From: Amphiscolops sp. MND2022
Taxonomy: Eukaryota
Length of the DNA: 64,000 bases
NCBI GenBank assembly: GCA_964187785.1
Contig: OZ076409.1
Span: 67,830,001 to 67,894,000 of the forward strand
Reading direction: 5' to 3'
Positions within the stretch are counted from its first letter, which is position 1, and every line of letters starts with the position of its first letter. Below, in pieces: positions 9,913-37,211 of the stretch. Made by a program: the position numbers and the translations under genes. The notes below the pieces were generated by a model. The model had not been told where the DNA came from, did not search any database, and saw nothing but the letters and a program-made list of their open reading frames with translations.

Positions 9913-12900
9913 TGACCCCGACGTGATTCAAAATACCAAATCTGAAAACGAATAACTTTCTTCAATTTTAAATATTCGTGTCCTATATCTCTTTTCTTTT
10001 CTGCTTTTCAGAAGAAATAAGAAAAAAGTGTATGGAAAAGAACAAAAAAGAGACAAAAGTATAAAATAGGGTAACGCAACGAGAAGAAAATGAGACAGTT
10101 TTGGAACCCGAAGATTGATAACAGAAGATCATTAAAATTAAACCAGAATAATGGCCAGAAATAGAATCCATACCCAATTAGCCATAACACCAAAATGCTG
10201 AACACCATGGAATTGGGATCCGGAGACAACACTACAACTTCAACATCATCTCAGCTAGAACCAAAACACGCACCTGTAAGCAGAAACATAATGATCCCAC
10301 CTCCATTCTACCGCACAATCCCGACTGTTTGGTTTCGACAGATAGCATCCCAGTTCGTCTCAGCTGTAATTATCAACGACACAACCAAATATCACCAAAT
10401 CCTCGCAGCAACTCCAGAAGACGTCGTAGCCAACTTACCAATAAAAATTGAAGACTACAGCAACCTCAAAGATAGCATCACTCAAGTCTACCAGTAGTCA
10501 GAAACAGGGCTCATTGAAGAAGTATTAGGAACAATTTCACTGGATGGACAAAAGTCCTCAGTTTGCCTCTTGCGCAACCAGCGCAGGATTTTTGAATTTC
10601 ATCTGACAAGGGACAACGATGTAACCAAACACCGCCTTATCCAAGCCATGCCTATCTCAAACGCGTTCATCACTTTCCGCACATTTGGACCTGCCATCCG
10701 ACAAATTCGCCAAACTAGTCGACGCCATATACAGCTACTCAAAGGACACCTTTCAGGAAAACCCACACGTTTACGCTACACAGGAACTCTCGTCATGCAC
10801 GCCAGCCGCAGCCAAAGCAAAGGAACTGCTCAACCGACAACACCTTTCAGCCATTCTAACCCGGACAACGACCCAAAATTTGCCGCTTTCACTTGTTTTT
10901 CGCTTACTCCGCCAAACGATGTAAGACCTGGTGTAAGTGGCATGGACCAAATCCCACACACATCGAACCGTCATCTTGCGCACAACCCCTGCCGCACGTG
11001 GAAATGAATAGCCCAACTCGTGTGCGCGGCAACGATTTAGGATCCCATATGCATCCGCCTTGCCGCTAAAATCGACTCACGGAAAACTAGTTTCAGTGAA
11101 TCTATGGTATCAATAATCAAATCAACGCTCGTCAGCACCGAATACGCCACGCCGACAACAACGAACCTCGAAAAAGTAAACGGTGACCGTATCAAAGTTT
11201 ACGGAAAATTGACCCTCACAATCGCCATACCCTGCCTCCGACGCAACTACAACTTCACCTTCACATTCTACGACTGGATTTCTTGAAGGACAAAGACATG
11301 AACGTCAACTGCCGCAACCTAACAGTAACCGACAACGTAACCAAATTCATTTCAACACGCAACGAATCACCCGCACAACCAAGTCACAGCGCTGTTCTAG
11401 CCGTTTCTCTGGACATGTCTCGAATAATCGACACAGCTCTCAGAAAGATAATGAAACAGCTTTCATCAATTTTCGAAGACGCAGATTTCAACACGCCATG
11501 TACTTACAATACCACGCATCGCATTGCCATTTCGACTCAACCTGATTTTGGTACGCCTAGAAGGTGTTTCCCTGAAAAACTATCTATCGCCAAATCATCT
11601 TTCGACGAAATGCAACGCTTAAGAATCATTCGACCATGGAAAAGCCCAAACGCATGGCCTCTGCATTTGGTACCGGAAAAAAACCGGAGACAGAAGACCA
11701 TGTAGAGACTACCGCGCACTCAACCAAATCACAGTTCGCGATTCGTACCCACTGTCGCAGGTTTCATCGTTCGCACTCCACGACAAACATGTCTTCAGCA
11801 AGCTCGACATAATCAAAGCTTATCACCAAATACCCATGCACTCCGACAACATTGAGAAGACAGCCATTACCACACCATTTGGACTCTTTGAGTTTCTTCA
11901 CATGCCTTTCGGACTCAAAAACGCCAGTAAAACTTTCCAACGTTTCATCAACAATATCACCCACGGATTGCCAGATGTGTTCGCCTACGCCGATGATATA
12001 CTCGTTGCCAGCAACAATTTGGTTGATCACATCAACGCACTCACAGAACTCTTTACCCGCCTCGAGAAGTTTGGACTACGCATTAACTTTACAATATGCC
12101 AACGGATTTAATACTATATAGACTTTTTAGGATACTTCTTCATCACTTTATAGAAAACTCAACACTCTCCCTCACTACAGATGCCTCTGATACAGCAGTG
12201 GGAGCCGCCTTACACGAGGTAACAGACAACAGCAGCCGCCTTACTGCATTTTTCTCCCGCGGACTCACTGCCTGGATGAAATTACAGCACATTTGATGAG
12301 GTACTCCTCGATATCTTCGCAGCAACACTAAAGTTCAAACATCTGATTGACGAACGCCATACCGTTGTTTTCACAAACCACAAACCCATCACCTGTTCAG
12401 TTCTGCCATGCAAGAACAACACCAACACCCCTCGACAGTCTCGACATTTTTCTCTACTAGCAGAATACATTGACGAAATTCAACATATATCAGGATCAAC
12501 GAATGTTGTAGCCGACTGCCTTTCTCGACCACCAACCGACGACACCATCATTAACCGTAGCATCAGCGTCAACGGTTTTCACCGACAACTATTCTCTATC
12601 AAAATTTGCCAGCCTTCAGGACACGTCATTTCAACAACAGATGTCAGAACAATACCAACATGGAACACAGATGATGAACATTGGAACCACGACTCTCACT
12701 TGTGACAAAAGCATTCCTCTGCCCTTATTCTGTGCCGTTTTCCAATCTTCACCCAAATCCAAAACCTTTGTCGCTGCAACCGGAAATCAACGTCACGTAT
12801 GATCTTCGCCCGCTCCACTTAGCCCAATGCCCAACGCACTGTCAAAGAATCGTGCCACAACTGCCTCACTTGCCAACAGATAAATTCAATCGCCACGTAC

Positions 12901-16950: not shown

Positions 16951-18082
16951 GAGAATTATGTACTTTCTATGATAGAAAATACAAAAAAACATTCAAAGGA
17001 AAATTACCAGTCTGGAAAATTGTGGTTTGATACGACTACACCGGGAGTTCGAAAAATAGTTCAGACTGAATTTGCCCAGTAAAGCACTAGAACGACTGTT
17101 GGAATAGCATTTGGACATTTCCGACAAGTTTAGAGATTCTTCTGAAGTCTAGTGGCAGTTTTCTTCAAGAAACGTTCCCGTACGATATGATGAATATTGA
17201 TTTTATTCCATAGTTCCATAAAAACTAAGAACAGTCTAGTGAAATAAATACTTCATAACTTCTCAGCAAGTATTTTAAAATCATATTAGTTGTTCAAGCA
17301 AATATATTGATTTTCTTAAAGTTTCGATTTCAGGGTCTATGCATTTTTCACCTAGAATTTGAGAACTAAATCTGGTAACTCTGATTGTACGGTAGCCATA
17401 TGATCTTTCAATTTTTCTACATGAACAGATGAAGTGCTCGTCAAAAAACAAGTCTTCGCGATTGTATAGTGACAGAGGTAATCAGTGTTTGTTCTCTGAT
17501 GGGTATAATGTAACATCCACCAACCTTGTGGCAGAACACCTTCCAGAAATTTACCAAAAGTTCGAAGTACCGCACAAAACGAAAATGGCCGATTGGCAGG
17601 TGCTTGAAACTAGTCTGGAAGACAAATAAGCAAAAAAGCACCCACCAGCCACGGAAGAGACAATTAACAACCCGAGCAAACCCTAAAGAGTCCGACAGTG
17701 ATGACGGCAACAGAAATGGCAAATCACTCTATTACGCCAAAAACCCAAAATCTGCAGTGTCTGCTATATCGGGTATGCTGTATCACGCAACTCAAAGTCT
17801 CGGTGAGACTTTAACTCCATTTTTTATGGCTGCAATTTTAGTCAACAGTGCATTATTTCAGGTATTCGGCAATATTAGATCCTGTATTTTTGATATATTT
17901 GACGAATAAAATGTATTTCAGCTAATTGCTTTTTGGACCTCGGGAGTATGTAGGAAGTCGCGGAAATATTAGGATTACGTGCTTGTGGGACGGGCCCAGA
18001 CTTTGAGAATGCCGGCACGTCGTCTCGAAGCTCTAAATGAGGAGTCTCCTCGACGTTAGAAAAATCCCCCTAGGAGACAACT

Positions 18083-20032
18083 TGTGGAATTTTTAGATTT
18101 TGGCGTTTTAGAAAGATCCCATCATTTTTGCGCGAAGTACATACGGTAGGCAGAACTATGTTAATCATGTTTTAGACCGCCGGAGTAGTGAAAACAGCTG
18201 AACAGGCTGACAATAGCATTCTTCGATATGGCTTACTTGGCAAACTAGGTATTTACTTAGTAAACGATAGTTCTTCGGTAGAATTTAAAGTTAGTGAGTG
18301 ACGTCAGCAATGAAATGACTCGAATCGGCTGCGTCAGAGTCAATCTCTCAGAGCGAATTTTACTAAGTCCCACTTAAGAGCAAAAATATTCTAAGACACG
18401 ATATTTGGAAACCGAGGGGGACCAAATCGAAAAACCCCCCAGTCAGGTTTTTCTCAAAGACTATTTATCGTAGAGACCTGAAATTTGGCACACGTATACC
18501 TGAGCTGTTATGCTACTGATCTATAAAAACGGAACCGAGCCGAGACCCCCCAGTCCCGGGCTATTAGCACCGGAAGCGACCTATGTCGACCCCCCTACGA
18601 ATTCGTCGGCGAAGCACGGAATAAGTTGTATTATATATAGAATTGATAGCCCATATGATATTAGGCAGTTTGTGCACATTTTCGGAACCCTACGACGCGT
18701 GTAGGAGGAGCACGGGCCCTATGTAAATAAACCCCGAATGTTATGTAAATAGCCGCCGGATGACCCGAGAATAATGAAACTTACCTAAGATGTTCACCTA
18801 GTAACCCTAAGTAATATAAATGAAAGATACGTTAATCGGTCCACCACGCGCGGAGTAATGTTTGTTTAAGGCACGCGGGACCGGACGCACGGGCCCGACC
18901 GATAAACGATGTTGACTTTGGCTTGTAATATCTCAAACAAACCGGAATGATTAATGTAGTCGATTATTAACGTGAATGAAACCGTATTTATAACCCAGGC
19001 GGGGGTAACCGCCTTAAGTAAACAAACGATACGCACATCATGTAACTCGAAGACCATCGACCCTAGGACGATATAACTTGGCATGTAGCAACTCTGGATG
19101 AGGACGAATAACCTCAAGGTCACTGATGGATCTCAAGGTCATTGTGGATGCAACCCATGAAAATATAGAGAAACTTACGATAAAACATGTAAATCAGCGC
19201 CGTTTGCGTGATAATTTATGCATTTCAGTCAGGCGGAACGATTCGCGACGTATTGCACCAGGATGATAGAAAAGTACCCCGTACGCGTAGAGAACATGTA
19301 AACCATGTAGTTGAAGGTCATTAAACGATTGGCTCGATATTGGAAATATCTTGGTTGACTTGAATTATTATTGAAATGTGAACTTTGCACAACCATTGTT
19401 GAACTATTTGTCGTTGGCGGCGAAGAATGTCTGGCCGAAACATAACTAGGGAGCTGCCATGCCATAAAAGGAATGGAACTACATGAAGTTAAAAGCATGC
19501 AAATAAAAGAGCGACATCGGTATAACAAAAATGCGGCCGATGAATAAATATCCCAGGGAGGGAAAAAGAGACCGAATTGACTCAGAAGAACGATTACGAA
19601 GCTAAGAGTAAGTTGAGCCGCGTGCGGGCAAGAAACCTACTCGAGATCGAATTTGACTTAACTGCTTTGTGAGAGCAGCGAATAAGTCACAAGTCCGGGA
19701 CTTGGAAATCTTTGAGTGAATCGTGATTCTGGCACAGTCTTGTCGAGTTATTGTATTTAATTCATTCACCTGCTGTGCTATTGTTATTGCTTGGTTGAGT
19801 AGTTACGTACTGTGGAAATCTTCGACTTGTATTATCCAGATAATTCCTGAATTATAGTATTAATTGCAAGTAACTTTTCTATAGTGTTTTGGAGTCGAAA
19901 CTTGAGCACCGGAGAGACTTTGTGAAAAGAAAACGCGATACGTGGACGAAACTTACTCACTAAAAACTAAACCTTTCTGTTAGAATCGAGCCTTTGGGAT
20001 TTCTCTCCGACCCTCTAGCAAAAATTTCTACA
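18083..20032 (+). repeat. 5' LTR (1950 bp)
   Basis: tgtggaatttt...aaaatttctaca with inverted termini. It differs from the 3' LTR at only about four substitutions and one C indel that I could spot by eye. Confidence 0.95.
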
Positions 20033-20033
20033 G

Positions 20034-20050
20034 TGGCGCTCCTGGGTGGG
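20034..20050 (+). promoter_or_regulatory. Primer-binding site, tRNA-Asn-like
   Basis: tggcgctcctgggtggg lies 1 nt after the LTR. Its reverse complement cccacccaggagcgCCA resembles the 3' end of animal tRNA-Asn (cccacccagggacgCCA). Confidence 0.75.
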
Positions 20051-20232
20051 CAATTTTCGTAGTTCTGTATCGCTGTTATTTTGGAATTGTTTTACTGGGA
20101 CTTAGCTGTAATCCCTTGACGACACGATCAAAACAAGCACATTATCTGATGAGGTTGATCGGCTGAGAACGTTTTCGTACAACAGAACAGAGAGGTTTCT
20201 AGTTACTAGTTGCCTGAAGTAACGCTTTGGGT

Positions 20233-22722
20233 ATGGAAGGCGAACAACGACTGGCAATAATGGAGGCTGTTGCCCAAGGGGTGATACAGGGCCTCAACGG
20301 GAATGAGAATCGGCTGTTTGGCAATGGAGCAATCAGACCTGACAGCTTTCCCTCACAGAACTATCCAGATTGGTCCCAATGGAAAACGCACTTTTACAGA
20401 GTTGGTAGAGCCAACGGATGGACTGAGTTGCAAGGTCTGCAAGCTGTGCCTGTGTGCTTGATTGGGTACGCATTGGACGAGTACAACGCTGCGCCTCGAG
20501 AACTGAGAGAGCAAGTTGATGGGGAAGATGCACCTACGTTAGCTGCCCTATTCAATCACATGGGAAGAGAAATGGGAATGATGCGTAATGACCGTTTGGG
20601 AAAAGCAGAGTTCAGAAACCTTCGACAGCGACCAGAGGAAACTCTGAGAGAATTTGGTCGACGAGTGAGAAACATTGGAAAGATTGCCTACTCGGAGAAG
20701 GACCCCAACACGAGAGACGAGTTGTTTCGGGAGAAGTTTCTCGAGGGTTTGAGCGATGTACAACTGGAAGTTCAGTTGTTGAAAGAAAACCCACAAACAT
20801 TTGGGGATCTAGTGAACAGGGCCGTTGACTTGGAAGTTATTGCTCGAACAACACGTGGCCGTTCACGGAATGAACAAGAGAGGTACGAATTGTTTGGAAG
20901 GCAGCAAGACTCAAGTTGTGAGTTCCGTGGTTATTCGCCCGAACCGTGGAAAGAGGGATTACATCAGCTCACAAGAAGAATGGACCAGATGACACAGATG
21001 ATGATGACGTTTTTGGAAACTATGTCGACAACGGCGAGGCCTGAGAAGCGGGCTGGGGTGACGGACCCATGGAGAGACGATGTCATCCCTGTAGCGAGCG
21101 AGCGGAAGTTCCACGGGGACGGTTGTCTTGTAACTGATAAATGCCCTGTTTGCGAGCATTATGGACATTCTCCCCAACAATGCCCCAAACGGCAGGTGGT
21201 GGTCGAAGACGCTTCTGAGATGCATGGGAAGTTGACAAGGGAGAAAGCCGCACAAATTGTTGAGAGGGCCGGCTTAGCAATAGAAAGAAAGGCGTTGAAC
21301 GCTGTGCGTGTGGTTGACTGTTCTGGTTGTAACAGCGGTGTTTTTGTGAAAGCACGAATTGAGGGGAAAGAGATGGATGTTCTGCTAGATACAGGAGCTG
21401 GCGTGAACGTGGTGGACTTAAGTACGTTGGAATCGCTCAGACTCGATGACGTGGTCGAAGAATTTCGTGGAGAGTTGCGGTCTGTAGACGGTCAACCAGT
21501 GACGACTAAAGGATTAACCCGACTGAATTTGCAGTTGGGACCCTTGAAGGAGCAAGAAGAGTTTGTGGTGGTTCCCCACTGCGAGCCATCAGTTATTCTA
21601 GGCTTGAACTTCCTGAAGAAGCACAAATTTATTGTCCATTTTGGGAAAAACGAACTGTCCACACCCCCGCTATCCTCAGAACCGCTGAAAATGAGGGTAG
21701 TTGCTTCGAGCGAAGACGAGAGCAGGTGTTACCAGCGGAGCACGGACAACAGCCGTGAAAGCGTGGAGACTGAACTCTCACAGTCGGCACCACCCATTCA
21801 GCACTTGAGCGTTCAAGATAGCATGAATCCAAGATGGGACTCCGGAGAGAAACCGCCAGCAGGGCGATGGGACGCAATGATTATTGACTCTGAGGCTGAA
21901 TTCCGCATGGTATCGACGACAGAGACTAAGTACAGGAGTGATGACAGCCGATGCGCCATCGTTACTACCCTGAAACCTCATAAGATGACCCTTTTTGGCG
22001 ATGATGACGTCGACGGAGGACGCGGAAACCTGAAGTACAAAGAGATTGAGGGAGACCTATTTTCGTCCAAAGGTTGTTTGGCTCACTGTGTTTCGGCAGA
22101 TTTCCACATGGGGACCGGAGTTGCCAAGCAAGTCAAAATGAGGTATCCCACTACATATCCGAAGGACGTCAACCACAAGAAACAGCCAGTTTTTGCGCAG
22201 TGGATTGAAGGAGAACATCGCTACGTGTATCACCTGGTCACCAAACAACGATACTTCGAGAAACCGACCTACGAATCCGTGAAAACGTCGCTGCAACAGA
22301 TGAGAACCCACGCGGAGTGGTCTGGGGTCGACAGAATAAGCCTGCCAAGGATTGGCTGCGGTTTGGATCAACTGAATTGGAGTGAAATGAGAAGTCTAAT
22401 TAAAGACGTCTTCAAAGGGAGTGACGTAGCTATTACAGTGTATGTATGCCCTCAGCAGAACCCGACTCCCAATTGCGAGACTGACGTCGAAGAAGTTGGA
22501 AGCAGAAGGGGAGAACGCCCTTCGCCGACACCTTCCAGCTCGGGGTACATTGACGACTGGTTCGACAGGAACCAACAATGGGAACTGGGAAAGTTCAAGG
22601 AGCAAGGGTTGCGGTCTCTCCGACACGAGAGGAGCGAGAATGCAGGATTGTGGTCAGTCAAGCGCGGAGCGGCCCAGCCAGATGTCACTGCACCGTACAA
22701 ACGTGAGAAGATGATGGCTTAA
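20233..22722 (+). CDS. Retrotransposon polyprotein: Gag capsid + CCHC zinc knuckle + aspartic protease + TARG1/OARD1 (Poa1p-like) macrodomain, 829 aa from the first ATG
   Basis: Uninterrupted ORF. Capsid-like WSQWKTHF...ANGW and LRQRPEETLREF; CPVCEHYGHSPQQC (21142-21183); LLDTGA protease active site (Asp at 21388) with ILGLNFL. Macrodomain GDLF...LAHCVSADFHMGTGVA...YHLVTK...KPTYE...SLPRIGCGLDQLNW...ITVY (22030-22443). Confidence 0.93.
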   Translation: MEGEQRLAIMEAVAQGVIQGLNGNENRLFGNGAIRPDSFPSQNYPDWSQWKTHFYRVGRANGWTELQGLQAVPVCLIGYALDEYNAAPRELREQVDGEDAPTLAALFNHMGREMGMMRNDRLGKAEFRNLRQRPEETLREFGRRVRNIGKIAYSEKDPNTRDELFREKFLEGLSDVQLEVQLLKENPQTFGDLVNRAVDLEVIARTTRGRSRNEQERYELFGRQQDSSCEFRGYSPEPWKEGLHQLTRRMDQMTQMMMTFLETMSTTARPEKRAGVTDPWRDDVIPVASERKFHGDGCLVTDKCPVCEHYGHSPQQCPKRQVVVEDASEMHGKLTREKAAQIVERAGLAIERKALNAVRVVDCSGCNSGVFVKARIEGKEMDVLLDTGAGVNVVDLSTLESLRLDDVVEEFRGELRSVDGQPVTTKGLTRLNLQLGPLKEQEEFVVVPHCEPSVILGLNFLKKHKFIVHFGKNELSTPPLSSEPLKMRVVASSEDESRCYQRSTDNSRESVETELSQSAPPIQHLSVQDSMNPRWDSGEKPPAGRWDAMIIDSEAEFRMVSTTETKYRSDDSRCAIVTTLKPHKMTLFGDDDVDGGRGNLKYKEIEGDLFSSKGCLAHCVSADFHMGTGVAKQVKMRYPTTYPKDVNHKKQPVFAQWIEGEHRYVYHLVTKQRYFEKPTYESVKTSLQQMRTHAEWSGVDRISLPRIGCGLDQLNWSEMRSLIKDVFKGSDVAITVYVCPQQNPTPNCETDVEEVGSRRGERPSPTPSSSGYIDDWFDRNQQWELGKFKEQGLRSLRHERSENAGLWSVKRGAAQPDVTAPYKREKMMA

Positions 22723-23779
22723 ACAACAACTATCACTTCGGAAGATTGACTTGTCTTTGATTAGATATATTTGACCCGAGACTTCGATTCGGCTTGATGT
22801 CTTTATGACCCATAGTGAAACTTTCCTTAGTCTCACGTTTTTTTTTGTTTTTGTTTTTTTTTTTTAAATATAAATCAGGTAACGCCCCACCCGTGAACAC
22901 CTGAATCCCCTTTGACGTTGTTTCGAAGCGAGCAGAAGGGAAGAAAGAATTTTGAATTAGCAGTGCTAGATATTAGAATTTTGGGAATTACAAAAAAATG
23001 GCGCCTCGAAACAATGTCACTCCCCCCAATGCTCAAGGCAGGTTCTTGCGTATAATTTTCACGACCCAACGCGACCCGCCCCTGAGGTTTCCCCCTTACA
23101 AAGAAAATATGCCTCCTTGTTGAATTGTGACCCAGCCCTTTGTTTTACTCGATCTGAGACAAACTCTTCCATCAAAGCGCTGTTTCGCCTTGACAATTTT
23201 TTTTCAAATTATTTCCGCCTAACCAACCCCCCTGACACTACTACCCCGATGTTACGACGCGGTGCTAAACCGTCGTTTGTATCTGGCGAAGAATCGTAGT
23301 ACCCCCAGACTTGCTTTGATACATAGTTTTGTGCAGTACTTTTTTCTGTTATATACTTTGATCCCTGCAACCTTCTCTTTAAGGGCGCCTAGAAGACACA
23401 ACTGAACCCTGAATTGTACTCGTTTCGTACGCAATAAAGGGACCTGCTCAAGTTAGGAGAGCTATGAATACTGTATTCCTATTTTAATGAAGGGAGTCAA
23501 TGATGACGGATGATGACTTTGAATAAAATTAAATTGATCGTTACCCGCGCCAGCTTGGTGGGTTATAGATAGTCCGAAAGTTTTCCTGGCCAATAAAAGG
23601 TGGCACTTCAACATGATAGAATGGATGTACAAATTAGCAGTACCGAAATTCCGAGCTCGCGAAAGTTGACTTGTTCACAGAGTAAATTTGCGGAGTAAAC
23701 AAAGACTTCAACGGCGAAAGATCCGCATTAGATAAATTTTGTTCTTTGGTGAGCGGCAGCAAATCTATACAATTTACGA

Positions 23780-24073
23780 ATGACTTATATTGGGCTTTAC
23801 TGGTCCTGGGACTGCGAGGATTTCGACGAGGTAGTTTTTGTTGAGCGGATTTTTTTTGATTACGGGGAAGAACCAATGGTCGCCCGAATTCACTGTTCTA
23901 ACCGACCCAGAATAAGGAACGTGGAAGTCGCGCCGGGCACCAGAAGGTGGGCCACGTTACTGGAGATGCTCAGAGAAATTTTCGCCGGTGCGTGGAATTT
24001 CCATCCTGTAGATCGGGAGAGGGTCAGAGTGTTAATTGATTTCATGGTAGGATCGAGGAAGTCGCGGGGATAA
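23780..24073 (+). CDS. Putative small accessory ORF (97 aa) in the 3' internal region of the LTR element
   Basis: ATG-initiated, sense to the element, protein-like composition; no recognisable domain. Confidence 0.3.
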   Translation: MTYIGLYWSWDCEDFDEVVFVERIFFDYGEEPMVARIHCSNRPRIRNVEVAPGTRRWATLLEMLREIFAGAWNFHPVDRERVRVLIDFMVGSRKSRG

Positions 24074-24436
24074 CTCATAAATTCATAACTTAAACAATTT
24101 TTCAATTTAACCCACGTCGTTATATTATAAACCTAAACTAGATTTACTGGCTCGGTTGCCCACCCCAAAAATTACTTTGATGATTTATTTTAATTGAGAC
24201 TTCGGTGTTTTGCTGATTATATGATGTTTAAATCGCCTAATTTATTGCTGTTGTTTGATGTTATACTAGTTCTCGAATACTGTACATATTATCAACGATC
24301 GGTGTTATTTTTTTTATCCGGAAATCATTTTGACCAATCCCGAACCCTACCCCCATATTTATGTTCATGTTCAACCTAGAACCCACGATTCAGCCAACGC
24401 TAATATCGCTAAGTTTATTCGGGAGAATAAAAGTGC

Positions 24437-24448
24437 AGAAGGGAAGAG
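24437..24448 (+). promoter_or_regulatory. Polypurine tract
   Basis: agaagggaagag immediately before the 3' LTR TG. Confidence 0.85.
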
Positions 24449-26399
24449 TGTGGAATTTTTAGATTTTGGCGTTTTAGAAAGATCCCATCATTTTTGCGCG
24501 AAGTACATACGGTAGGCAGAACTATGTTAATCATGTTTTAGACCGCCGGAGTAGTGAAAACAGCTGAACAGGCTGACAATAGCATTCTTCGATATGGCTT
24601 ACTTGGCAAACTAGGTATTTACTTAGTAAACGATAGTTCTTCGGTAGAATTTAAAGTTAGTGAGTGACGTCAGCAATGAAATGACTCGAATCGGCTGCGT
24701 CAGAGTCAATCTCTCAGAGCGAATTTTACTAAGTCCCACTTAAGAGCAAAAATATTCTAAGACACGATATTTGGAAACCGAGGGGGACCAAATCGAAAAA
24801 CCCCCCCAGTCAGGTTTTTCTCAAAGACTATTTATCGTAGAGACCTGAAATTTGGCACACGTATACCTGAGCTGTTATGCTACTGATCTATAAAAACGGA
24901 ACCGAGCCGAGACCCCCCAGTCCCGGGCTATTAGCACCGGAAGCGACCTATGTCGACCCCCCTACGAATTCGTCGGCGAAGCACGGAATAAGTTGTATTA
25001 TATATATAATTGATAGCCCATATGATATTAGGCAGTTTGTGCACATTTTCGGAACCCTACGACGCGTGTAGGAGGAGCACGGGCCCTATGTAAATAAACC
25101 CCGAATGTTATGTAAATAGCCGCCGGATGACCCGAGAATAATGAAACTTACCTAAGATGTTCACCTAGTAACCCTAAGTAATATACATGAAAGATACATT
25201 AATCGGTCCACCACGCGCGGAGTAATGTTTGTTTAAGGCACGCGGGACCGGACGCACGGGCCCGACCGATAAACGATGTTGACTTTGGCTTGTAATATCT
25301 CAAACAAACCGGAATGATTAATGTAGTCGATTATTAACGTGAATGAAACCGTATTTATAACCCAGGCGGGGGTAACCGCCTTAAGTAAACAAACGATACG
25401 CACATCATGTAACTCGAAGACCATCGACCCTAGGACGATATAACTTGGCATGTAGCAACTCTGGATGAGGACGAATAACCTCAAGGTCACTGATGGATCT
25501 CAAGGTCATTGTGGATGCAACCCATGAAAATATAGAGAAACTTACGATAAAACATGTAAATCAGCGCCGTTTGCGTGATAATTTATGCATTTCAGTCAGG
25601 CGGAACGATTCGCGACGTATTGCACCAGGATGATAGAAAAGTACCCCGTACGCGTAGAGAACATGTAAACCATGTAGTTGAAGGTCATTAAACGATTGGC
25701 TCGATATTGGAAATATCTTGGTTGACTTGAATTATTATTGAAATGTGAACTTTGCACAACCATTGTTGAACTATTTGTCGTTGGCGGCGAAGAATGTCTG
25801 GCCGAAACATAACTAGGGAGCTGCCATGCCATAAAAGGAATGGAACTACATGAAGTTAAAAGCATGCAAATAAAAGAGCGACATCGGTATAACAAAAATG
25901 CGGCCGATGAATAAATATCCCAGGGAGGGAAAAAGAGACCGAATTGACTCAGAAGAACGATTACGAAGCTAAGAGTAAGTTGAGCCGCGTGCGGGCAAGA
26001 AACCTACTCGAGATCGAATTTGACTTAACTGCTTTGTGAGAGCAGCGAATAAGTCACAAGTCCGGGACTTGGAAATCTTTGAGTGAATCGTGATTCTGGC
26101 ACAGTCTTGTCGAGTTATTGTATTTAATTCATTCACCTGCTGTGCTATTGTTATTGCTTGGTTGAGTAGTTACGTACTGTGGAAATCTTCGACTTGTATT
26201 ATCCAGATAATTCCTGAATTATAGTATTAATTGCAAGTAACTTTTCTATAGTGTTTTGGAGTCGAAACTTGAGCACCGGAGAGACTTTGTGAAAAGAATA
26301 CGCGATACGTGGACGAAACTTACTCACTAAAAACTAAACCTTTCTGTTAGAATCGAGCCTTTGGGATTTCTCTCCGACCCTCTAGCAAAAATTTCTACA
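24449..26399 (+). repeat. 3' LTR (1951 bp)
   Basis: Near-identical copy of 18083-20032, followed by the TSD caact. Confidence 0.95.
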
Positions 26400-27729
26400 C
26401 AACTTTTGGGACAAGCCTTATGTCTAGGGTTGTAGTAAGGCAATGGTCTCCTGTCAAGGCAACAAAGGCATTATCCCAGCTCTATGTGTACAGCTTTAGC
26501 TTTACGTTACATAACTTCATTCAGTAATGTGAATTGAATGCTCAACATTTGGCACAGATTTTATTAAATTTTGGGTACACTTTGGCTTGCTTCTGTCCGA
26601 ATTTCTTAATTCAAATAACATTCATCATTCACAGAAGCTTTGAAAATTTTTTGGAATCCAAGGAAAATAAACTGACATTCAGAAAACAATGAGCCAAAAT
26701 TGGGTGCAAAAAGGTGGTATGATTTATAATTTTTGATGGGAAATGGGAAAATTACCAAATGTGAGTGATACAATTGAAACCAAATTTTCTGGGAAACAAT
26801 TCGATTTAGCTTGAAAGTCGATTTTGATCGAATGCTCGGAAAGCGTCAACTCTTGCAGTTCTTAGTTCCGAATTCTTTGGTGCCCGAGATAAAACAAAGA
26901 ATGTTCAATTAGTTACGTTTTGATGTTTATTCGGAAGTTTCATGTTCGAACACAAAGATATCGGTATGTGTTTAGACCTTAAATAAACTCGGCTCTTTCG
27001 CAGAAAGTGCGGTAAGTTCACAACAAAGGTTTAGTTCCTATAGTTTTGTGATATCTCTGAAATGCTATTATTTACTTGGCAGTATTCAGGAAACCTTTCA
27101 TGATTTGCTGCTGAACCTACTGTTTGATGAAATTTTGTTTCTTTCTGAACCATAAAATGATCCAATAATGAAGTTTCATACTTAGTTCGTAAGCAAGTAG
27201 CCATCTAAAAGAATTCAAGTCAAGAGAACATTAGGAACTTGAGAGGTCAAGTACTTTGGTGGTGAAACTCGCGTTGTTCGAATATTTTCCAACTTATGAT
27301 TTCATTCAAAAATATTTAGTTTTGTTGCCAACTCGAACTATCCACCGTTTAGTATCCACTCCAAACAGAATTTTTGGCATCACGCTCTAACCAATCTTTC
27401 TTCCAGATTAATAATTGCTCTTATTGCAATAATCTGGTAAAATGGAAATTGGGTGTAATTTTATCGTTTGATGAAGCTCATAAACTTTGTCTTGGAGTAC
27501 CAATAAAACACTCGTTAAAACCTCAAGGATCTCTTTTACAAAACACAGTTATTCCTTAATTGAAATTGCTTGAACTGTTTATTGCCAAGTTTAGATTTCA
27601 CCGACATTTCAAAACAAAGCAGCTCCAGTCAACTAAAAACTGCAACTAAAGTCACCTCATGTGAGTAATTACATCAGTAGAAAAATTCAAGAAAAAATCG
27701 CGAAGACAATGCGATAGAATTGGATAGAA

Positions 27730-28501
27730 TGTAACGGCAAGCAGTTATCGGTCGCTTAACACGTTAACAGAGGTGGAGGAACCTGCAGGAATGGTTGAAT
27801 CGCTCGGGACAGGCGCCCATCGCCACAGATCCATTTTGCCTCCAGGGGTGAAATACGTCCCGGGGCCGCGGGTGCTTCGACGAATACTGTCCAACCGGTC
27901 CTAGTCTTTGATTGCTAATAGTAACGGGCATCTTTCTGACTCTCTAAAGACCACCGCTTAACTAGCATATAAAAACAATGCCAAGAATAAGGTAAATTTC
28001 CAGTTCCAGGGTGACATGTGAATAAGATCTAAAATTGGGGAATAAGATCTAAACTAGCGCTAGCGCTACTGAATACAGCCAAAATCACTGAAAACACATG
28101 AAAACAGGCACGAATATGGCAAACCACACAGCTACAAGCTGGGGCGCAGGGACTCCAAGCACCAAACAAGGATCTTTAGGCGAAAAGACTCATTTTTACG
28201 GTTTCCGCTACATAGGGTAGCATAATGCTGAAAATCGATAAAACCCGTGTTAGCACCTCAAAAAGAGTCTATTTTCGGATGTTCTTGCCGTCTCTGGCTT
28301 CTGTCATGGCGGCGCGCCCGTGTTTTTGCTCGTTCTTGCTCTTTGTTGTCGAAGTACCTGCCAATTTCGTGGAAACAGCGAAAAGAGCAATCACATGCTC
28401 AGTGCCACGTCACACATCGGATTAGAATTTTTGACAAAATTTCTGAACATGTCAAAGTTGCAAAATCGGTTGAAATTGCTGTACCAGAGCTTGCCGTTGC
28501 A
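27730..28501 (-). repeat. 3' LTR of the minus-strand element (772 bp)
   Basis: tgtaacggcaagc...gcttgccgttgca; copy of 35525-36296. Confidence 0.92.
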
Positions 28502-29623
28502 TCACTCCCCGGGCTTTATGCATGATGTCCCTGTCATGCGGAGAGGCTGGCATTGAATACATCGCCACATCATGAGTGCAATCCACGGGGGTCTCAAACT
28601 GGTGATGTTGCAACGGTCCAGTGGCACTGTCATCTTTTGCTGATTGGGCAACCATGAGGTCTTGCTTCTAGCCATCCAGAGAACCTGCATCGTCCAGAAA
28701 CTGTTGAAACAGAACTAGCTCGAGAGCTAGAAAGCCAGTACTCAAAAATGCACCTTGAAATTGATCAAATCCAAGATTCCATACATCAATCAAAAAAGCA
28801 CCACTTTTTTAGCACGAGTTTTCTGCAAAAGTCTGAATAGGATCCTGCTAGCACTTTTATTTTTGGACGTCTAAAATTTCTTTTACGGAGCGCTCACGCT
28901 CCAAAACGCACGTGGTTCTCATCAAAACATCTTTTCCACGGCAATAAAATTTCAGTTTGCAGCACAGTTAAAAGTTCTTTTCGCTAAAACTTCTTTTCAG
29001 CAGTAAAACCACTGTTTAAAAGGAAGACAAGCTGTTTCTTTGATACTTTTTTTAACAGTTCGGTTTGGTTTGGGCAACACGCACTGATGTGCAGCTCCAT
29101 ACCTGTATAGAGTTCAGTAGCATCTGTCAAGGAGCGCATCAGAAGCAAACTACGAACTGCTCGGAAGAGTAAGCACTGGAGTAAAGCAGACAGGTAGATC
29201 AAATCCTGCCATTTGCAGATCAGGAGCGCGCGCGCTCCTTATTTCTCCGGATATCACATTGGAATCTGGAGGAATTTTCTGGGAATCTTGGAAAAAAAAT
29301 AACACCTTTCGGGCGTAGCAATACATGTAGAGTTTTTGGGATATTTATTGAATTAACAGAAGTATTTGAATTCAAACATCTCAAATAAAACTAAAACAAA
29401 AATGTCGCGACGTACGTTTACATGACTACTAAAATTACGAAACAAAGTTGCAGAAAAAACTGCTCCAACAAGAACATCACGCTGCAAGGTATCCATTACC
29501 AAACGTAGTGATATCCTCCGGGCGTTATCCAATTGAGTGGATGAGTGTAGGGGTGTTTGTCTTCAACTGAGGCTCCCCGGGCCTTAGTTGACTCCCCGGG
29601 CCTTAGTCGTTGAGCACCCTCTT

Positions 29624-31000
29624 TCACATGAGGATAGTGAGGAATGGACAAAACTGAATGCCTGACATAAAATTGCAGCAAGGAAAATTAAGCGTTGACG
29701 GCACCTCCTCCCCCTTTGAAAAGAAGTGGAGTGTGGTTTGGACTGGATAGACATCACCATCCAATAGCAGCAGGACGTGCAACAAGCATGAAGCATCAGG
29801 AAATCCGATAAAGAAAACTGTGGAGACTGGGTCTGTCTCAAGACTGGAATAGTTGTTCGGAGGACGGCCACGCCTATGTCCCTTCGGTCGGAGCAACCAT
29901 GGTAGAACTTGGCGTGGTGGACGGCCACGGCGACGTCCATCATAAAGGGACAAGAGAACTTTTTGCCATGAGTGCTCATAGTCTGTGCGCGGTGGTCGAC
30001 CACGTCTATGACCAGTTGGTCGAGTTTTAGCTGAACCACCAGGCAACCAATTGATAAAGACTGGCGGGTCCACCTGAATAAAATCCTGTAGTCCACGTTT
30101 AGCAGAATGTGGCTCCAAGGAGTCTTTCAGCAAATTCGGTAGCAACTTCGTAGTTGATATTAGGGACTTTGTTCCAGGGAAGTGAGAGTTGCTTAAAGAA
30201 TCCTGCGATAAGGAAATGGAGGATGAGATAGATATTCGTTCATTCTTCGTATCACTTGAGTAGAGGTTGCGCTCGCGCAACCCATTATCACCGACGTGAT
30301 ATTCAGGCAAAGTGTCAGCAATACTCATGGTTGTGGAATCCAAAGATATTGGGTCCAAACCCATGTCATTTGTTGGCTGTGTCATTGGTTTTGCTTCGGC
30401 GTCGTTTGAAATGTTGATAGTGGCACTTCTGAGGTGTATTTTCACATCTGCATTTATCGACTCCATTTGTGCTAGCACTCGTGCTAACAATTTCTCCATA
30501 CGTATCTCACTTCGTACCAACGAGATTGATATTTCATCCATCTGCTGCTCCAAGGCCTTTAATTGTTGGTCCTGTTTCTGATAAAACTGAATACTGGCTT
30601 CATGGAGGGAAGATCTTTTAGACGACGATACTAAACTAGGACTGGGAGTCCTTATGCTCCTCTCCGGCTCGGTATCCTGAGAGTTAGATGGCATTGAGTC
30701 TAGAAAATTGGAGACAGGCTTGAAACTATCCTCCAAAGGCCAATCTTCCAAGTTCAAATCCTATAACTTCGTCGATCGGTCATGTTCATCTACCATTTGG
30801 GATTCATTTTGAGGTTGAACATCATGAACATCCATTGGTTGTGCTGAACTGACAGTCCTTCCCCCTTTAAAAAAGGAACGGAGGCGGTGGAAGACTTTCC
30901 AACGTTTCATTTCAGCTTTACAGGCTTCCAACTGCTTGACTAGAACCACCAGTGTACCCAAGTTCAGTGTCAGGGTCAAAGTCAAGAGAATTTCTAGCAA
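29624..31000 (-). CDS. Unknown element-borne protein (coiled coil, Ser-rich, three GxRRGRPP AT-hook-like motifs), split by one in-frame TAG at 30761-30763
   Basis: The 79-aa ORF (31000-30761) and the 377-aa ORF (30757-29624) are in the same frame: ...RSTKL*DLNLEDW.... Heptad-like QDQQLKALEQQMDEISISLVRSEIRMEKLL; RRGRPP occurs three times at 29858-30013. Confidence 0.55.
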
Positions 31001-31949
31001 TCACAGCGTGCTGAGAATTGCTCAACTCTTTGCACGCTGCTCTGTGGGCCAGAACATTTTGCTCTAGAGCAAATTGCTGCAGCCAAGTTGGATAGTGCGC
31101 ACCAAACAGACAGTCGAGCGGTTTGTCGACCTCTCAACCTCAAGAGATTTGGGTATTTTGCAATTACCCAAAAGAGTTCTCTGCAAATTTGGCGTAAAAT
31201 TCGGTGTTGATGCTACTCGATACAGCAGAATAACACCAAAATGAGGCACCAGAGTGTTCAAAAAGGTGTCACACTTGGGCAATCCGGTCAAATTTTTCGT
31301 CACTAGGAAGTTGCTCCTCCCAAAGTCTTGTGATTTTGGCTAAGTCGGAACACTCAGGGTCTCTTTTGGATATCGAAAACCCTGCTCAAGGTAACTCCTA
31401 GAGATCTTCGTTTGGAAAAATGTAGTCCAGAACGCGTCGCAGGCACTTAAAATTGCTGCCTTGAACTGTTCAGGATCAAATTTCAAAGTTCCAGAGGAGT
31501 CCAAAATTTATGACCCCTGCCGGCAATTTTTTTGAACCGTGGGATTTGCCTCGTTTGCACCCAGGAACGTCTACTGGGTCCGTTCCGTTGGAAAATGGAG
31601 GCTTTTTGGGTTTGCCTCCTGTACAGCGGAAGTATTTAAGGTTTACACTGATAGTTTTTCTGGCGTTTTTTGGAATTTTGTTCAAGACGTGTGTCTGAAC
31701 TGAGTCAAAGTCAGTTTTATCAATCGTACTGGGTAAAAAATGACACAGCACGTTTCGTCAGCCGCACAAGTCAGAAAAATAACCTACCGTAGCTGATGAT
31801 TGCCTCCAGCTCCAAGCTAGAGCCTTTTTCAACGATTTTTGGATTTTTCAACTGTTTTCGAAAATCACTCAAATGGCTTGTACAAGTGCTGGAAACGTGG
31901 TATTGGGCTCAAAGTTGATCACGCGATCACACGTACAGCCAGCTACACT

Positions 31950-33750
31950 ACAAAAACAATCAATGAGAATTCAGACCACTGGGCAAGATTTAGATCTGAT
32001 ACTGACGTTCCGGATCACCGTGTCTCGATTAATACGATTTTTCACATGCAATCAGAGACTCTCGTCCACAGTGCTGAGCTCTCGAGCTCACTTTTTTCAG
32101 CAACGGTGCACCAAGTGACACTAATAGGAATAGTCCAGGGCAATGTTATCCCAACTTTCCAATAAGGTGCGCCGACAGTTCCAAAAAATGATCTAATTCG
32201 TTACGATACACAGGATATCACGACTTCAAGTAACAAAATGCTCTGATCCAGCAAGGCAGCCCACTCGATACTGATCAAATATTACACGCACAGCAATGCA
32301 CGAACTACTGGGAGTTCAAACTAGGGGTTTCAACAGGTTTCCAGCACGTAGAAATGGCTTTTTTCCCACTTTCCCAGTTTTCGTCTCGGTGAAACCTCAA
32401 ACTGAAACAATGACCATGCACGTCCGAGAAGAGTCGAAATTAGTTCCAAGGGTTGTAGCGTAATGGAAGGTATACAGCACTTCCGAATTGATGCACTGAC
32501 CCAAAAAGTGAGTCCAGAATCGGGGTATTAGGATCCAGTCACAGGTCAGAAGTTTTCCAGATATTTTTTGGGTTTTTCAGCTTCACTTGAAAAAAAAACT
32601 CCAGAGGCTAGCGCTAACGGTAGAAACGCAGGATCGTCTTCAAAATCAACCACACAAGCTCACGTTTGCTGAGGTACAAGGGAGTACTAGTTGATTTGTG
32701 CTGAGGTGACTAGGTGAAGTTTCAACACAGTACAGACGTTCGATATCACTGTGTTCCAATATGTACTGTTTTTCACGTGTCAACCCAGATTCTGGCGAAC
32801 TGCAAAGAGCGCTCACGCTCGTTATTTCGGCAACAATACGATAAACTTGCACTGGTTACGATAGTGGGCAGCAATTTGGCCCCACTCTTTGAATAAGGTG
32901 TTCAGGCAATCCCACAAGACTTCGTAGAATTCACCTTCTTGCGCACCTTCTTGTGCAGTTTGTTTTAGTCAATTTCTCAACAGATACAGTACCAATTGAC
33001 CCCAAACTTGACAGGCGCTGCCAGTAGGCACCAACCACGCTGTTAGAATAGTGAAACAGACGCTGGTAGGCTTGCAGGGGGTCTCCTCAAGGATTTGGCC
33101 CTCTGCTCGTCTCGGTGAGGACTTAAGAAAATTTATGTTTTTTCAACGTCCAAGATTTTCCAACACACGTTCTAAGGCTCGTAGGCTGTTCAAATTTGCA
33201 CAGCGCTTTCCCACAAGCACACTGGGCCAGAGAATCAATCTGGTTTAGGGCAAAAAGTCTCCAGTCACCCACAGGAATAATTTCAAAGAATTTTTGGATT
33301 TTCCAAAAATCGCACTATAACACTCAAGAGGCTCGTGTGTGCGCTGGAAGCGCTGTAGCAAGCCCAAAATTGACCAGCAGATCTTAAGTACACGTAGCGT
33401 TACGAAAATGAACACAGAATTGAGCTGCACCCCTTCTACACAGTTCCACCTAGGTACAGACGTGCGGTACCACTATGTACCAAAAGACACCGTTTTTCAC
33501 GTCTTTTTCAAGATTGCGGTCCACTGGAAGGAGCTAGCAAGCTCAAATTCTCTGCAGCAACGTAGGAACTAGCACAGGTTACAATGGTGGGCTGCAATAT
33601 AGCCCCACCCGTCGGCTAAGCTGCCCGGGTTACTCGGAAAAATTAAGAAAAAACTGCCTTTTTGCACACCTTTTTGGGTGCCACGTTTTTGCTATTTCCT
33701 CAACAAGTATCACACTGATCGGCACCAAACTTAGTAGTTTATGCCAGTAG
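31950..33750. repeat. About 2.5-3 degenerate tandem units of ~725-730 bp inside the LTR element
   Basis: tac(t/a)gacgt...cac..tgt...gtttttcac motif at 32000, 32731 and 33455; matching downstream blocks at ~32115, ~32845 and ~33568. Confidence 0.6.
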
Positions 33751-35491
33751 GCACCTACAATGCCACTAAAAGGGTCGAATTGAAGCGCGAGCGCTTATTT
33801 GAGGTTTCGACCCACTACGTACGTTGTACACGAAAAAACACTGTTTTTGACGACTTTTTTCACAAATTGACCAAGAGGATCACCTCAGAAAGTGATACGG
33901 CGGGCAAAATGGGACCAACGTGTTGCCCCACTATCCGTAGCACTGGGATAAACCCTCAATTGGTTGTGCCCGTTAGGTATAAGGCACTGACAGTCCTGCA
34001 GTTTTGGATTTTTTCGGTCCTCTTACGCTTCTCTGAAGTCGAAACGTCAGAGAGCTTTTCTCGACTTTGGTGACCGATACGCTCACCAAATTTTCGGCAC
34101 TAACGTTAATTTTGGTGGTGGTTACGAAAAAGCAACCACTTTTTGGCTAGGGTTCAGGAATCGATGACCCGACCCTAGCTCAGAGACAGTCCGGTTTTGT
34201 GGAAAATTGATCGAATTCAGTGCGTTTTTCCACTTTTCTCAGCACTGAATGGGAGTTTTTGCACGCGGTTTTCACCACAATGCGTTATTGTTACTACAAA
34301 AACAGAAAATGAGAGCGCGCAGGCTCCCAGGTCTCGAAAACACTGAGTGCCCCAGAGGTTTTAATGATGCACTCTGGCACTCCTGAAACTGGCCAAAAAT
34401 CGAGGTTTTTCGACCTGTTCTCACCAAGAAAACGTTACAAACTCTCTTAAATCCTTTTTTCGGTACTGTGGAGTGTGCCCCAAACTAATAGCAGCACGGA
34501 AGAGGCAATTACATCACAATCCAGCACTCTCCCAGTGGCATTTCATAGTGGTTTTTTGCCAATTTTGCCGAAAACCGGGTTTTTTCATGCAAAATGTGTT
34601 TCAAAAAGGTCTCCAACGGCCTTTCTGGTTGTCGTTACTTTATGTAGCATAACCCTCGAGGTTTTGGGCTGCTTTCTATTCATTTTTGCAACTGCTGTGG
34701 CTAATACTTCGAGAGCTCGCGCTCGTACCAAGAAAAGTACTCAAAAATGCCAAAAATCACGTTTTTGCGACTTTTGCACTAAAAATTGCGTTTTTTTCAC
34801 TGAAAATAGGTGCAAAAGCACACACTCAGTTGCAACAGGGTAAAATTAGCATGCACAAATGATTCCCCGTCAAAAAATACACAATCTAAAAACTTTTTAA
34901 TACCATACTCCAAAATACCGATTCTTGCGGAATGAGGGGTGGTACCTTCGCCGTCTTTTTTCTCAACAACCAGACCAGCCAGAGAGAAACGGTTTGGACC
35001 GTCGGCAACGTCAGTGTTTGTTCTAGCTTTCCATCAAAAACCATGCTTCTAGCACGTCTCCACGGGAAATGGGAAAGGAGAGTCGGGAACACTCGTTTCA
35101 GCTCATCTATCGGTCAGATGGAACATGGCGCATCCATCAACTGAATACCTCGTACATAGCCATAAACGCTGAAATGAGCTCTAAAACACCTGTTACAACA
35201 TGCGTAACGGCTTTCTAGTGGTTCGCTAAGCCATTACAAAGGTACCCGCTGATGGAAACGTGCAATTTTAGACGATACCTGTCAACAAATACCTGTTATC
35301 AAAACATACCATAGGTATTCGGAAAAATCCCCCGAAATACAAGAAAAATACCAAAATATAACGTCATATCATCTAAAAAATTTGGAAAAACTCTGGGTAA
35401 ACGTCTCCTTCCAGAGTCCAATCGTTCTTGGCGTCCAATACCAGGGGGTCGGAAATTTCAAAACCATATAATAGGGCAGTAATCGGAAGCG

Positions 35492-35509
35492 ATCCCTCTG
35501 TGGTCGCCA
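35492..35509 (-). promoter_or_regulatory. Primer-binding site, tRNA-Arg-like
   Basis: Plus strand atccctctgtggtcgCCA resembles the 3' end of animal tRNA-Arg(TCG); it lies 15 nt from the LTR edge. Confidence 0.65.
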
Positions 35510-35524
35510 AAAAATGAGGTCTCA

Positions 35525-36296
35525 TGTAACGGCAAGCAGTTATCGGTCGCTTAACACGTTAACAGAGGTGGAGGAACCTGCAGGAATGGTTGAATCGCTC
35601 GGGACAGGCGCCCATCGCCACAGATCCATTTTGCCTCCAGGGGTGAAATACGTCCCGGGGCCGCGGGTGCTTCGACGAATACTGTCCAACCGGTCCTAGT
35701 CTTTGATTGCTAATAGTAACGGGCATCTTTCTGACTCTCTAAAGACCACCGCTTAACTAGCATATCAAAACAATGCCAAGAATAAGGTAAATTTCCAGTT
35801 CCAGGGTGACATGTGAATAAGATCTAAAATTGGGGAATAAGATCTAAACTAGCGCTAGCGCTACTGAATACAGCCAAAATCACTGAAAACACATGAAAAC
35901 AGGCACGAATATGGCAAACCACACAGCTACAAGCTGGGGCGCAGGGACTCCAAGCACCAAACAAGGATCTTTAGGCGAAAAGACTCATTTTTACGGTTTC
36001 CGCTACATAGGGTAGCATAATGCTGAAAATCGATAAAACCCGTGTTAGCACCTCAAAAAGAGTCTATTTTCGGATGTTCTTGCCGTCTCTGGCTTCTGTC
36101 ATGGCGGCGCGCCCGTGTTTTTGCTCGTTCTTGCTCTTTGTTGTCGAAGTACCTGCCAATTTCGTGGAAACAGCGAAAAGAGCAATCACATGCTCAGTGC
36201 CACGTCACACATCGGATTAGAATTTTTGACAAAATTTCTGAACATGTCAAAGTTGCAAAATCGGTTGATATTGCTGTACCAGAGCTTGCCGTTACA
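35525..36296 (-). repeat. 5' LTR of the minus-strand element (772 bp)
   Basis: tgtaacggcaagc...gcttgccgttaca, a perfect 13-bp terminal inverted repeat. Confidence 0.92.
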
Positions 36297-36446: not shown

Positions 36447-36682
36447 TATTATTTTCCGCCCCCACAAATTTATTTGTGTATGGGGGAGGAAAATCACAAT
36501 CTGTCTTTCGTTTTTTTTTTTACAAATTCTGCCAAATCTCCACTTTATTACCTCATTTATTAGCCATCGTGGCCCAGTGGGTAGTGCGTCTGCCTGCCAG
36601 ACACGATGTCATGGGTTCGAATCCGTGCTGAAGCGTTAAATTTTTGGCGGAAAATATCCCGGTGCTTAGCTTGCGTCTTGTT
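36447..36682 (+). mobile_element. Short interspersed repeat with HINE-like subTIRs and an internal tRNA-like (A-box/B-box) segment, copy 1
   Basis: tattttccgcc ... ggcggaaaata subTIR pair, cttgtt end; tggcccagtgg (A-box-like) and ggttcgaatcc (B-box). Second copy at 39638-39879. Confidence 0.65.
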
Positions 36683-36711
36683 TCGTTTTAGTTGCCGACT
36701 GTAACCTGACG

Positions 36712-37211
36712 ATGACTACCCCATCACAGAGCAACTCTTATTTCCAACCTAATCCAAAGCAACAGGAGCCGGAGACAGGCAGTGAACGATCTGAATCTAT
36801 TGAACTTCCAAAAGGCATTTCATCTACCATTGAAGCACAGTTTGTTGCAAATGTGCCCCCAAAGTCCAAGATTTTGAAATATGATTGGAAAATATTGAGC
36901 GGCACGATAGAAATTTGTGACGAAAACAACGCGGTAAAATTTTTTCCGTTCATCAAAGTACGAGTGGGCCTAACAAATCCAGAACTTGAAGATCTTGTGA
37001 CGTATATCCGAAATGAGTGGAAACTTCCGGAGCCTTGGTCGTCAATAACAGTCGTCGGAGATTTAACCGATTCAGACCTGGGAAAAATTTACGTCGTCAA
37101 GTTACAGCGCGCGTTCCAAACAACACCTGCTCTTGACAGGGTTCAGATTCTGACTCGGGAAAGGAACGCTGAAGTTGCGAACATTTTTGTTAGAGCTGTC
37201 AAGCCTTATGT
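36712..37211 (+). CDS. TRPM-like exon 1 (N-terminus, MHR1)
   Basis: ORF with KVRV...LVTYIRNEWKLPEPWSSITVVG; donor gttagt at 37212. A possible acceptor ttttag at 36691 means further upstream exons may exist. Confidence 0.8.

Follow-up and report, generated by a model that had tools for sequence, protein, structure and literature searches.

A TARG1-like macrodomain, probably an active enzyme, in a pol-less, Ty3/Gypsy-derived LTR element of Amphiscolops sp. MND2022

A young LTR element of Amphiscolops sp. MND2022 that has no pol encodes, in its single ORF, a macrodomain of the TARG1/OARD1 type. The best explanation overall, which we hold with moderate confidence, is that the domain is an intact TARG1-type hydrolase on a pol-less, Gypsy-derived element and would erase host ADP-ribose. 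The window, i.e., the whole stretch of DNA that was analysed, comprises 64,000 nucleotides (assembly GCA_964187785.1, contig OZ076409.1, positions 67,830,001 to 67,894,000 of the forward strand). The features of the element, in window coordinates, are as follows.

18078..18082, no strand: target-site duplication, left copy CAACT, 5 bp (sequence)
18083..20032, + strand: 5′ LTR, 1950 bp, TG...CA, 99.74% identical to the 3′ LTR
20034..20051, + strand: primer-binding site starting TGG, one base past the LTR (sequence)
20233..22722, + strand: single 829-aa ORF, with Gag-like region, zinc knuckle, aspartic protease, linker, macrodomain and tail
20233..20847, + strand: Gag capsid-like region, aa 1-205, assigned from position and high conservation
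21142..21183, + strand: zinc knuckle C-X2-C-X4-H-X4-C, aa 304-317 (motif)
21307..21657, + strand: retropepsin-type aspartic protease, aa 359-475 (PF13650, E 4.9e-11; PF13975, E 4.4e-10)
21388..21390, + strand: codon of protease catalytic Asp386, motif intact
21658..22023, + strand: polar linker, aa 476-597, 122 aa, 37% identical to that of the most distant family member
22024..22449, + strand: TARG1/OARD1-like macrodomain, aa 598-739, 16.4 kDa (PDB sequence match and model)
22093..22095, + strand: Ser621 codon, corresponding to TARG1 Ser35
22243..22245, + strand: Lys671 codon AAA, corresponding to TARG1 Lys84 (nucleophile)
22366..22368, + strand: Asp712 codon GAT, corresponding to TARG1 Asp125
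22450..22722, + strand: polar C-terminal tail, aa 740-829, 90 aa, varying between subfamilies
22723..24436, + strand: 3′ internal region, free of any RT, RNase H or integrase remnant
24437..24448, + strand: polypurine tract, directly 5′ of the 3′ LTR (sequence)
24449..26399, + strand: 3′ LTR, 1951 bp, TG...CA (sequence)
26400..26404, no strand: target-site duplication, right copy CAACT (sequence)

The element spans 8,317 bp (18083-26399), and its two LTRs differ by four substitutions and one one-base indel. The near-identity of the LTRs, together with the 5-bp duplication and the intact cis signals, indicates a very recent insertion made by an integrase. The primer-binding site may resemble the 3′ end of tRNA-Asn. 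The ORF contains the zinc knuckle, and its Gag-like region gave no capsid match in Pfam, NCBIfam or PDB. Comparison of the internal region with 14 query proteins, three of which contain RT, matched the macrodomain alone (best other match, E 0.027), and the RT, RNase H and integrase matches found in the 64-kb window all lie outside 18083-26399. The 56 family proteins gave no match to six non-macro pol segments. No hidden or decayed pol was found in the element or in these proteins. The element shares TG...CA LTRs, the duplication, the primer site, the polypurine tract and a retropepsin with autonomous Ty3/Gypsy elements and differs from them in having no RT, RNase H or integrase, which makes it non-autonomous. 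By its sequence, it is a non-autonomous LTR element that derives from Ty3/Gypsy, is young and exists in many copies.

The window holds further sequences of interest. A second young LTR element occupies 27730-36294 (770-bp LTRs, 99.74% identical); it shows no RT, RNase H or integrase match, looks pol-less, has no clear target-site duplication, and contains one 378-aa ORF (29624-30760, − strand) without a convincing family match. Broken remnants of Gypsy-type RT-RNase H and RNase H-integrase, with no macrodomain match, are present at 11343-12540 (+ strand) and 58681-60239 (− strand). Two stretches, 36670-37230 and 41960-42871 (+ strand), are probably exons of a host gene for a TRPM-like channel; PF25508 matches the latter at E 1e-18, and the former is presumably TRPM-like. 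A TRPM2-like Pfam match near the element is in keeping with an animal host. A short tRNA-like repeat that may be a SINE is present twice, at 36560-36684 and 39760-39882, and a tandem array of 29-bp period with higher-order repeats of about 175 bp at 1204-2442. ARAGORN called no tRNA in the window, and the one Rfam match to it (E 0.74) is at chance level.

The AHCVS motif of the macrodomain occupies 22081-22095, and the Ser, Lys and Asp codons all stand in the frame of the stop-free ORF 20233-22722, where the preliminary description of this DNA had read them. A phmmer search of the PDB with the translation of 22018-22455 had 11 hits at E≤0.001. Human C6orf130/TARG1 accounts for the top five (E 1.7e-31 to 3.8e-31), followed by the DarG macrodomain (E 1.6e-5); TARG1 is the closest solved relative by sequence. 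Counted along the phmmer alignment to 2l8r (151 residues; the entry numbering ends at 152), Ser621, Lys671 and Asp712 fall on Ser35, Lys84 and Asp125 (E about 2e-31), as had been proposed, and on this alignment the residue match is far beyond chance. Motifs common with human TARG1 are GDLF, AHCxS, TK and RIGCGLD. It had further been claimed that the three TARG1 residues are implicated in catalysis. Ser35 has a catalytic role in TARG1. For Lys84 and Asp125 the claim stands on the literature, where passages of PMC9411070, PMC7050489, PMC5087735, PMC5413906 and, likewise, bioRxiv 10.64898/2026.03.31.715305 identify only these two as the catalytic dyad. Sequence alignment places this dyad at Lys671 and Asp712. 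The macrodomain is also free of introns, as had been noted, being one continuous reading frame; this is expected of any retroelement ORF.

The catalytic residues should be weighed against their general conservation. Lys is present in 172, Asp in 168 and Ser in 147 of 173 related domains, which were picked by likeness to the query (187 found minus 14 redundant family domains). The insertion is too young to have decayed, and relatives hardly ever vary at Lys and Asp. Taken by themselves, the motifs are therefore poor evidence that the enzyme is active, and the residue match, taken as sequence, is an ordinary one. Two copies with a changed protease catalytic Asp still keep Ser, Lys and Asp of the macrodomain, so that the residues in one copy say little. 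All three are kept in 19/19 full-length family domains, which come from 26 hits, seven of them partial.

An AlphaFold model of the macrodomain built from an 80-row alignment has a pLDDT of 93.2 and supersedes a single-sequence folding (pLDDT 50.4). The top Foldseek match of the model is the TARG1-ADP-ribose complex (TM 0.89), and the superposition on the TARG1 structure, which the preliminary description had suggested as a check, agrees closely with the TARG1 assignment (Z 23.5, 1.4-1.5 Å over 139 residues, 39% identity in the structural alignment). The match to DarG is below that to TARG1 (Z 20), and alphavirus macrodomains are found at Z about 15 with 10-14% identity. As modelled, the domain is of the minimal ALC1-like macrodomain fold, and it has this fold, the motifs and the Lys/Asp dyad in common with human TARG1/OARD1/C6orf130 of the ALC1-like class.

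The copy in the window matches 36 of the 46 columns conserved at ≥70%, and its sharpest departures, Asp645, His648 and Val653, sit in a segment that is remodelled across the whole clade. Compared with other TARG1-like domains, this segment (aa 640-657) is divergent, among other places at a Gly that is 94% conserved outside the family. The basic RNA-docking patch of TARG1 is given as K50/R86/R126 in a passage of bioRxiv 10.64898/2026.03.31.715305; these positions read Met636/Arg673/Gln713 in the window's domain. Arg673 is kept in 19/19 family domains, while position 636 is mostly Thr and position 713 mostly Gln; Lys635 and Arg637, which flank docking position 636, are kept in the family. The docking positions vary outside the family too, with K/R in 56, 107 and 90 of 157 domains. 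Unlike TARG1, the element's domain thus stands in a retroelement polyprotein, has a remodelled aa 640-657 segment and retains one of the three RNA-docking residues.

The regions around the macrodomain had been described as low-complexity linkers that the element's own protease could cut. An entropy test found no 12-residue window at ≤2.2 bits in either the linker or the tail, and both are polar instead, with a hydrophobic share of 25% and 21%, respectively, compared to 37% in the macrodomain. A scan with a Gypsy-type cleavage motif places one match at the Gag-protease border (aa 355), which is kept in P0014, the most distant family member. Between protease and macrodomain the motif has a single match, in the linker (aa 574); it is absent from P0014, and a conserved site in this stretch was rejected. 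The protease motif is intact, and the domain may yet be released by the element's protease. From the sequence, possible macrodomain products would be of 16.4 kDa (domain alone), 26.6 kDa (with the tail) and 39-40 kDa (cut after the protease only).

We propose that the element would move with RT and integrase supplied in trans by a partner. The ORF needs no frameshift, so one macrodomain would be made per Gag, and the domain would be drawn into assembling particles. In the TARG1 mechanism, Lys attacks the ribose and Asp resolves the adduct; acting in this way, the domain would remove ADP-ribose that the host has added to proteins, RNA or cDNA of the element, a parallel to viral macrodomains that counter PARP defence. 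In passages of PMC7050489 and bioRxiv 10.64898/2026.03.31.715305, TARG1 is described as reversing ADP-ribose on proteins, at acidic residues, as well as on nucleic-acid ends and RNA bases. Such a counter-defence role, the erasing of host ADP-ribose marks on element products during replication, is suggested by analogy, and we give it an even chance; erasing host marks would be the simplest reason to keep the domain after the loss of pol. A literature search found no paper, among the matches listed, showing that ADP-ribosylation restricts LTR retrotransposons.

The domain could instead be a reader that binds ADP-ribose or poly(ADP-ribose), e.g., as a guide to PARylated chromatin for particles or the integration complex, with the Lys/Asp pair kept as part of the pocket. 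Autonomous relatives carry the domain just before integrase, where a tethering module could act, and a passage of PMC5087735 describes Lys84 as important for binding. The present element has no integrase to tether, however, and the equivalent of Asp125, a catalytic residue, is kept in 19/19 copies; we consider the reader unlikely. An eraser might also serve housekeeping, in which it clears DNA-repair PARP marks on cDNA ends or the integration gap and no host defence is involved. In its favour, TARG1 acts on nucleic-acid ends and moves to DNA damage, according to passages of PMC7050489. Relatives carry the domain next to integrase, which is likewise in keeping with housekeeping. To our knowledge, however, most Gypsy elements manage without a TARG1-like domain, and the cell already has a TARG1. 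With one domain made per Gag, there would also seem to be more of it than integration requires, and we consider the housekeeping role improbable.

Evidence of constraint on the domain comes from the family of copies. A search with the full-length ORF returned 19 proteins, of which 17 represent family clusters with 181 member sequences, these being cluster members that may not all come from one genome; in 11 clusters, with 168 members, 92% or more of the ORF is covered. The Gag-protease-macrodomain layout recurs in P0014, whose identity to the element's protein amounts to 82% for the capsid-like region, 64% for the protease (75/117), 37% for the linker (45/122), 75% for the macrodomain (106/142) and 25% for the tail. 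The difference in identity is strong between domain and linker (p 6e-10) and weaker between domain and protease (p 0.08). Furthermore, the 36 macrodomain differences from P0014 sit in variable columns (median conservation 0.29 vs 0.58, p 0.0003), in a protein-level test of constraint in which column conservation was measured across 157 outside domains. The same test gave p 0.005 for P0021 and 0.018 for P0171; for P0010 and P0006, the closest relatives to which it was applied, it fell short of significance (p 0.11 and 0.31). We also note that the family ORFs P0003-P0011 look mosaic, their protease, linker and tail blocks sorting independently, as expected from template switching. Among viral contigs, 98 pattern matches were obtained, none of which was confirmed as a relative of the family.

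A neutral passenger would be a leftover of the parent pol that looks intact from youth or from sequence exchange with autonomous elements, which is in line with LTRs that differ at 4 of 1950 sites and with the mosaic of the family proteins across regions. Yet the linker of P0014 has drifted to 37% where the domain stands at 75% with its changes away from conserved columns, and RT, RNase H and integrase are gone without trace while the domain stayed in frame; such a passenger is quite improbable. To judge from these comparisons, the macrodomain is very probably intact and under selection. Family-wide retention of the residues (19/19), the constraint signature and the confident TARG1-like model together argue that it is probably an active enzyme, for which our confidence is good, and they bear out the earlier suggestion of an active rather than a decayed domain.

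The relationships of the macrodomain point to its source. In a FastTree phylogeny of 173 domains, from which the host's own TARG1 is absent, the family groups with ten other domains (0.96). IQ-TREE, run on 64 of the 173, recovers the same group at 98/99, with a bootstrap that had not settled (correlation 0.956) and a neighbour group of ten that had been chosen from an earlier FastTree tree. Seven of the ten neighbour domains are preceded by RNase H or followed by integrase-side sequence, as identified by Pfam for P0026, P0035, P0176 and P0178 and by BLAST for P0054, P0152 and P0061; the other three are without an informative flank. The two closest Gypsy pol macrodomains are 43-48% identical to that of the element. 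P0026, P0035, P0176 and P0178 thus fall in the same macrodomain clade (98/99 support) as the element, and P0178 branches first, outside the element and the rest of the group (97/80; IQ-TREE). These relatives keep RNase H and integrase, whereas the element has the Gag-like protein, protease and macrodomain only. The nesting among RNase H-macro-integrase Gypsy domains argues that the domain was taken from a Gypsy pol rather than freshly captured from a host, and we place its origin in Ty3/Gypsy pol with high confidence from these trees. RT-RNase H and integrase would then have been lost on either side of the macrodomain; alternatively, the macrodomain would have been taken by recombination from a co-packaged autonomous element.

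A grouping of three family rows with cellular animal TARG1 was rejected (p-AU 0.00025; 28 rows, in which the ten cellular-type rows comprise nine named insect and snail proteins and one unnamed). A fresh capture of host TARG1 mRNA by the element, implied by the preliminary description and possibly serving the host, could draw on the missing introns and on a host TARG1 outside the sampled rows, but the missing introns are expected of any retroelement ORF, the domains closest to it belong to Ty3/Gypsy pol proteins, with P0178 branching outside the element and the rest, and the cellular grouping is rejected, so that on these comparisons it is already largely refuted and very improbable. As a whole, the clade may go back, remotely, to the host's TARG1.

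TARG1-like domains occur in other retroelement proteins as well. Among the best 150 hits, 37 long ones were scanned, and six of these contain RT, RNase H or integrase domains; so do four more among 38 longer hits, and P0020 has a TARG1-like domain ahead of a weak protease match. The domain is found in three polyprotein positions, namely ahead of the protease, behind RNase H or immediately before integrase, and behind integrase, which suggests repeated recruitment of TARG1-like domains by Gypsy elements. These additional retroelement domains are dispersed over the tree (4 changes), and as the deep branches are unresolved, the retroelement TARG1-like domains may also have a single origin. TARG1-like domains are fused, too, to UDG, NADAR, PNKP, BRCT, DNA ligase and XPG; the repair- or ADP-ribose-related fusions are P0057, P0074, P0075, P0077, P0089, P0107 and P0125. 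A metagenome scan gave three distant loci at 28-39%; one of them, L001, looks like a phage contig and has a stand-alone TARG1-like gene at 1868-2317. The ESM Atlas returned generic macrodomain and Gypsy pol clusters only; the top clusters for the macrodomain are largely viral.

Pol-less elements with Gag or Gag-protease are known in plants, namely TR-GAG (PMC4350172, in part) and wheat RLG_Sabrina_SA (PMC9744471, in part). The present element has features of the Gag(-protease) type, i.e., a single ORF, no RT or integrase, and many recent copies. As those sources describe them in the passages cited, TR-GAG and RLG_Sabrina_SA resemble it in that they have a single ORF without RT or integrase, retain their cis signals, have been active recently and presumably depend on a helper in trans. 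TR-GAG is under 4 kb with Gag only (PMC4350172, same passages), compared to 8,317 bp, 1.95-kb LTRs and a protease plus macrodomain here. The present element, in addition, resides in an animal host and has an extra enzyme domain, and those passages mention none for TR-GAG or RLG_Sabrina_SA. Fish endogenous retroviruses carry macro-domain ORFs (Basta et al. 2009, via a passage of the review PMC4977317) and are alike in bearing a macrodomain on an LTR retroelement; they differ in being epsilon-like retroviruses with additional ORFs. DarG and viral Mac1/nsP3 share the fold and a proposed reversal of ADP-ribosylation in conflict. DarG is without the dyad Asp in a passage of PMC9411070, whereas Asp712 is present in the element's domain, which scores 51.8 bits against a family cut-off of 250; assignment as a DarG antitoxin is ruled out on these two grounds.

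A whole-text word search of PMC6338049, on retrotransposon accessory domains, found macrodomains unmentioned, and the word matches for PMC8672886, as well as 12 of the 22 for bioRxiv 10.1101/2021.11.30.470311, include no passage on a macrodomain in a retroelement. Among the matches listed there was also no paper on TARG1-like domains in Gypsy; subscription papers, Repbase or supplements may describe such domains. What is notable in the present case is a pol-less element that retains a Gypsy-derived TARG1 domain under selection. A macrodomain of 16 kDa is easy to express and assay, which makes the idea directly testable. More tentatively, and rather doubtfully as a whole, we suggest that animal hosts ADP-ribosylate the RNA, cDNA or proteins of LTR retrotransposons, that Gypsy lineages repeatedly recruited TARG1-type erasers, and that the pol-less family would trade eraser-carrying capsids, with one eraser per Gag, for the RT and integrase of a partner. 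ADP-ribosylation as an antagonist pressure is known for RNA viruses and bacteria; among the matches listed, no paper describes it for Gypsy elements. That a TARG1-type domain has been kept under selection after RT, RNase H and integrase were lost would suggest that LTR retrotransposons, too, are under pressure from ADP-ribosylation.
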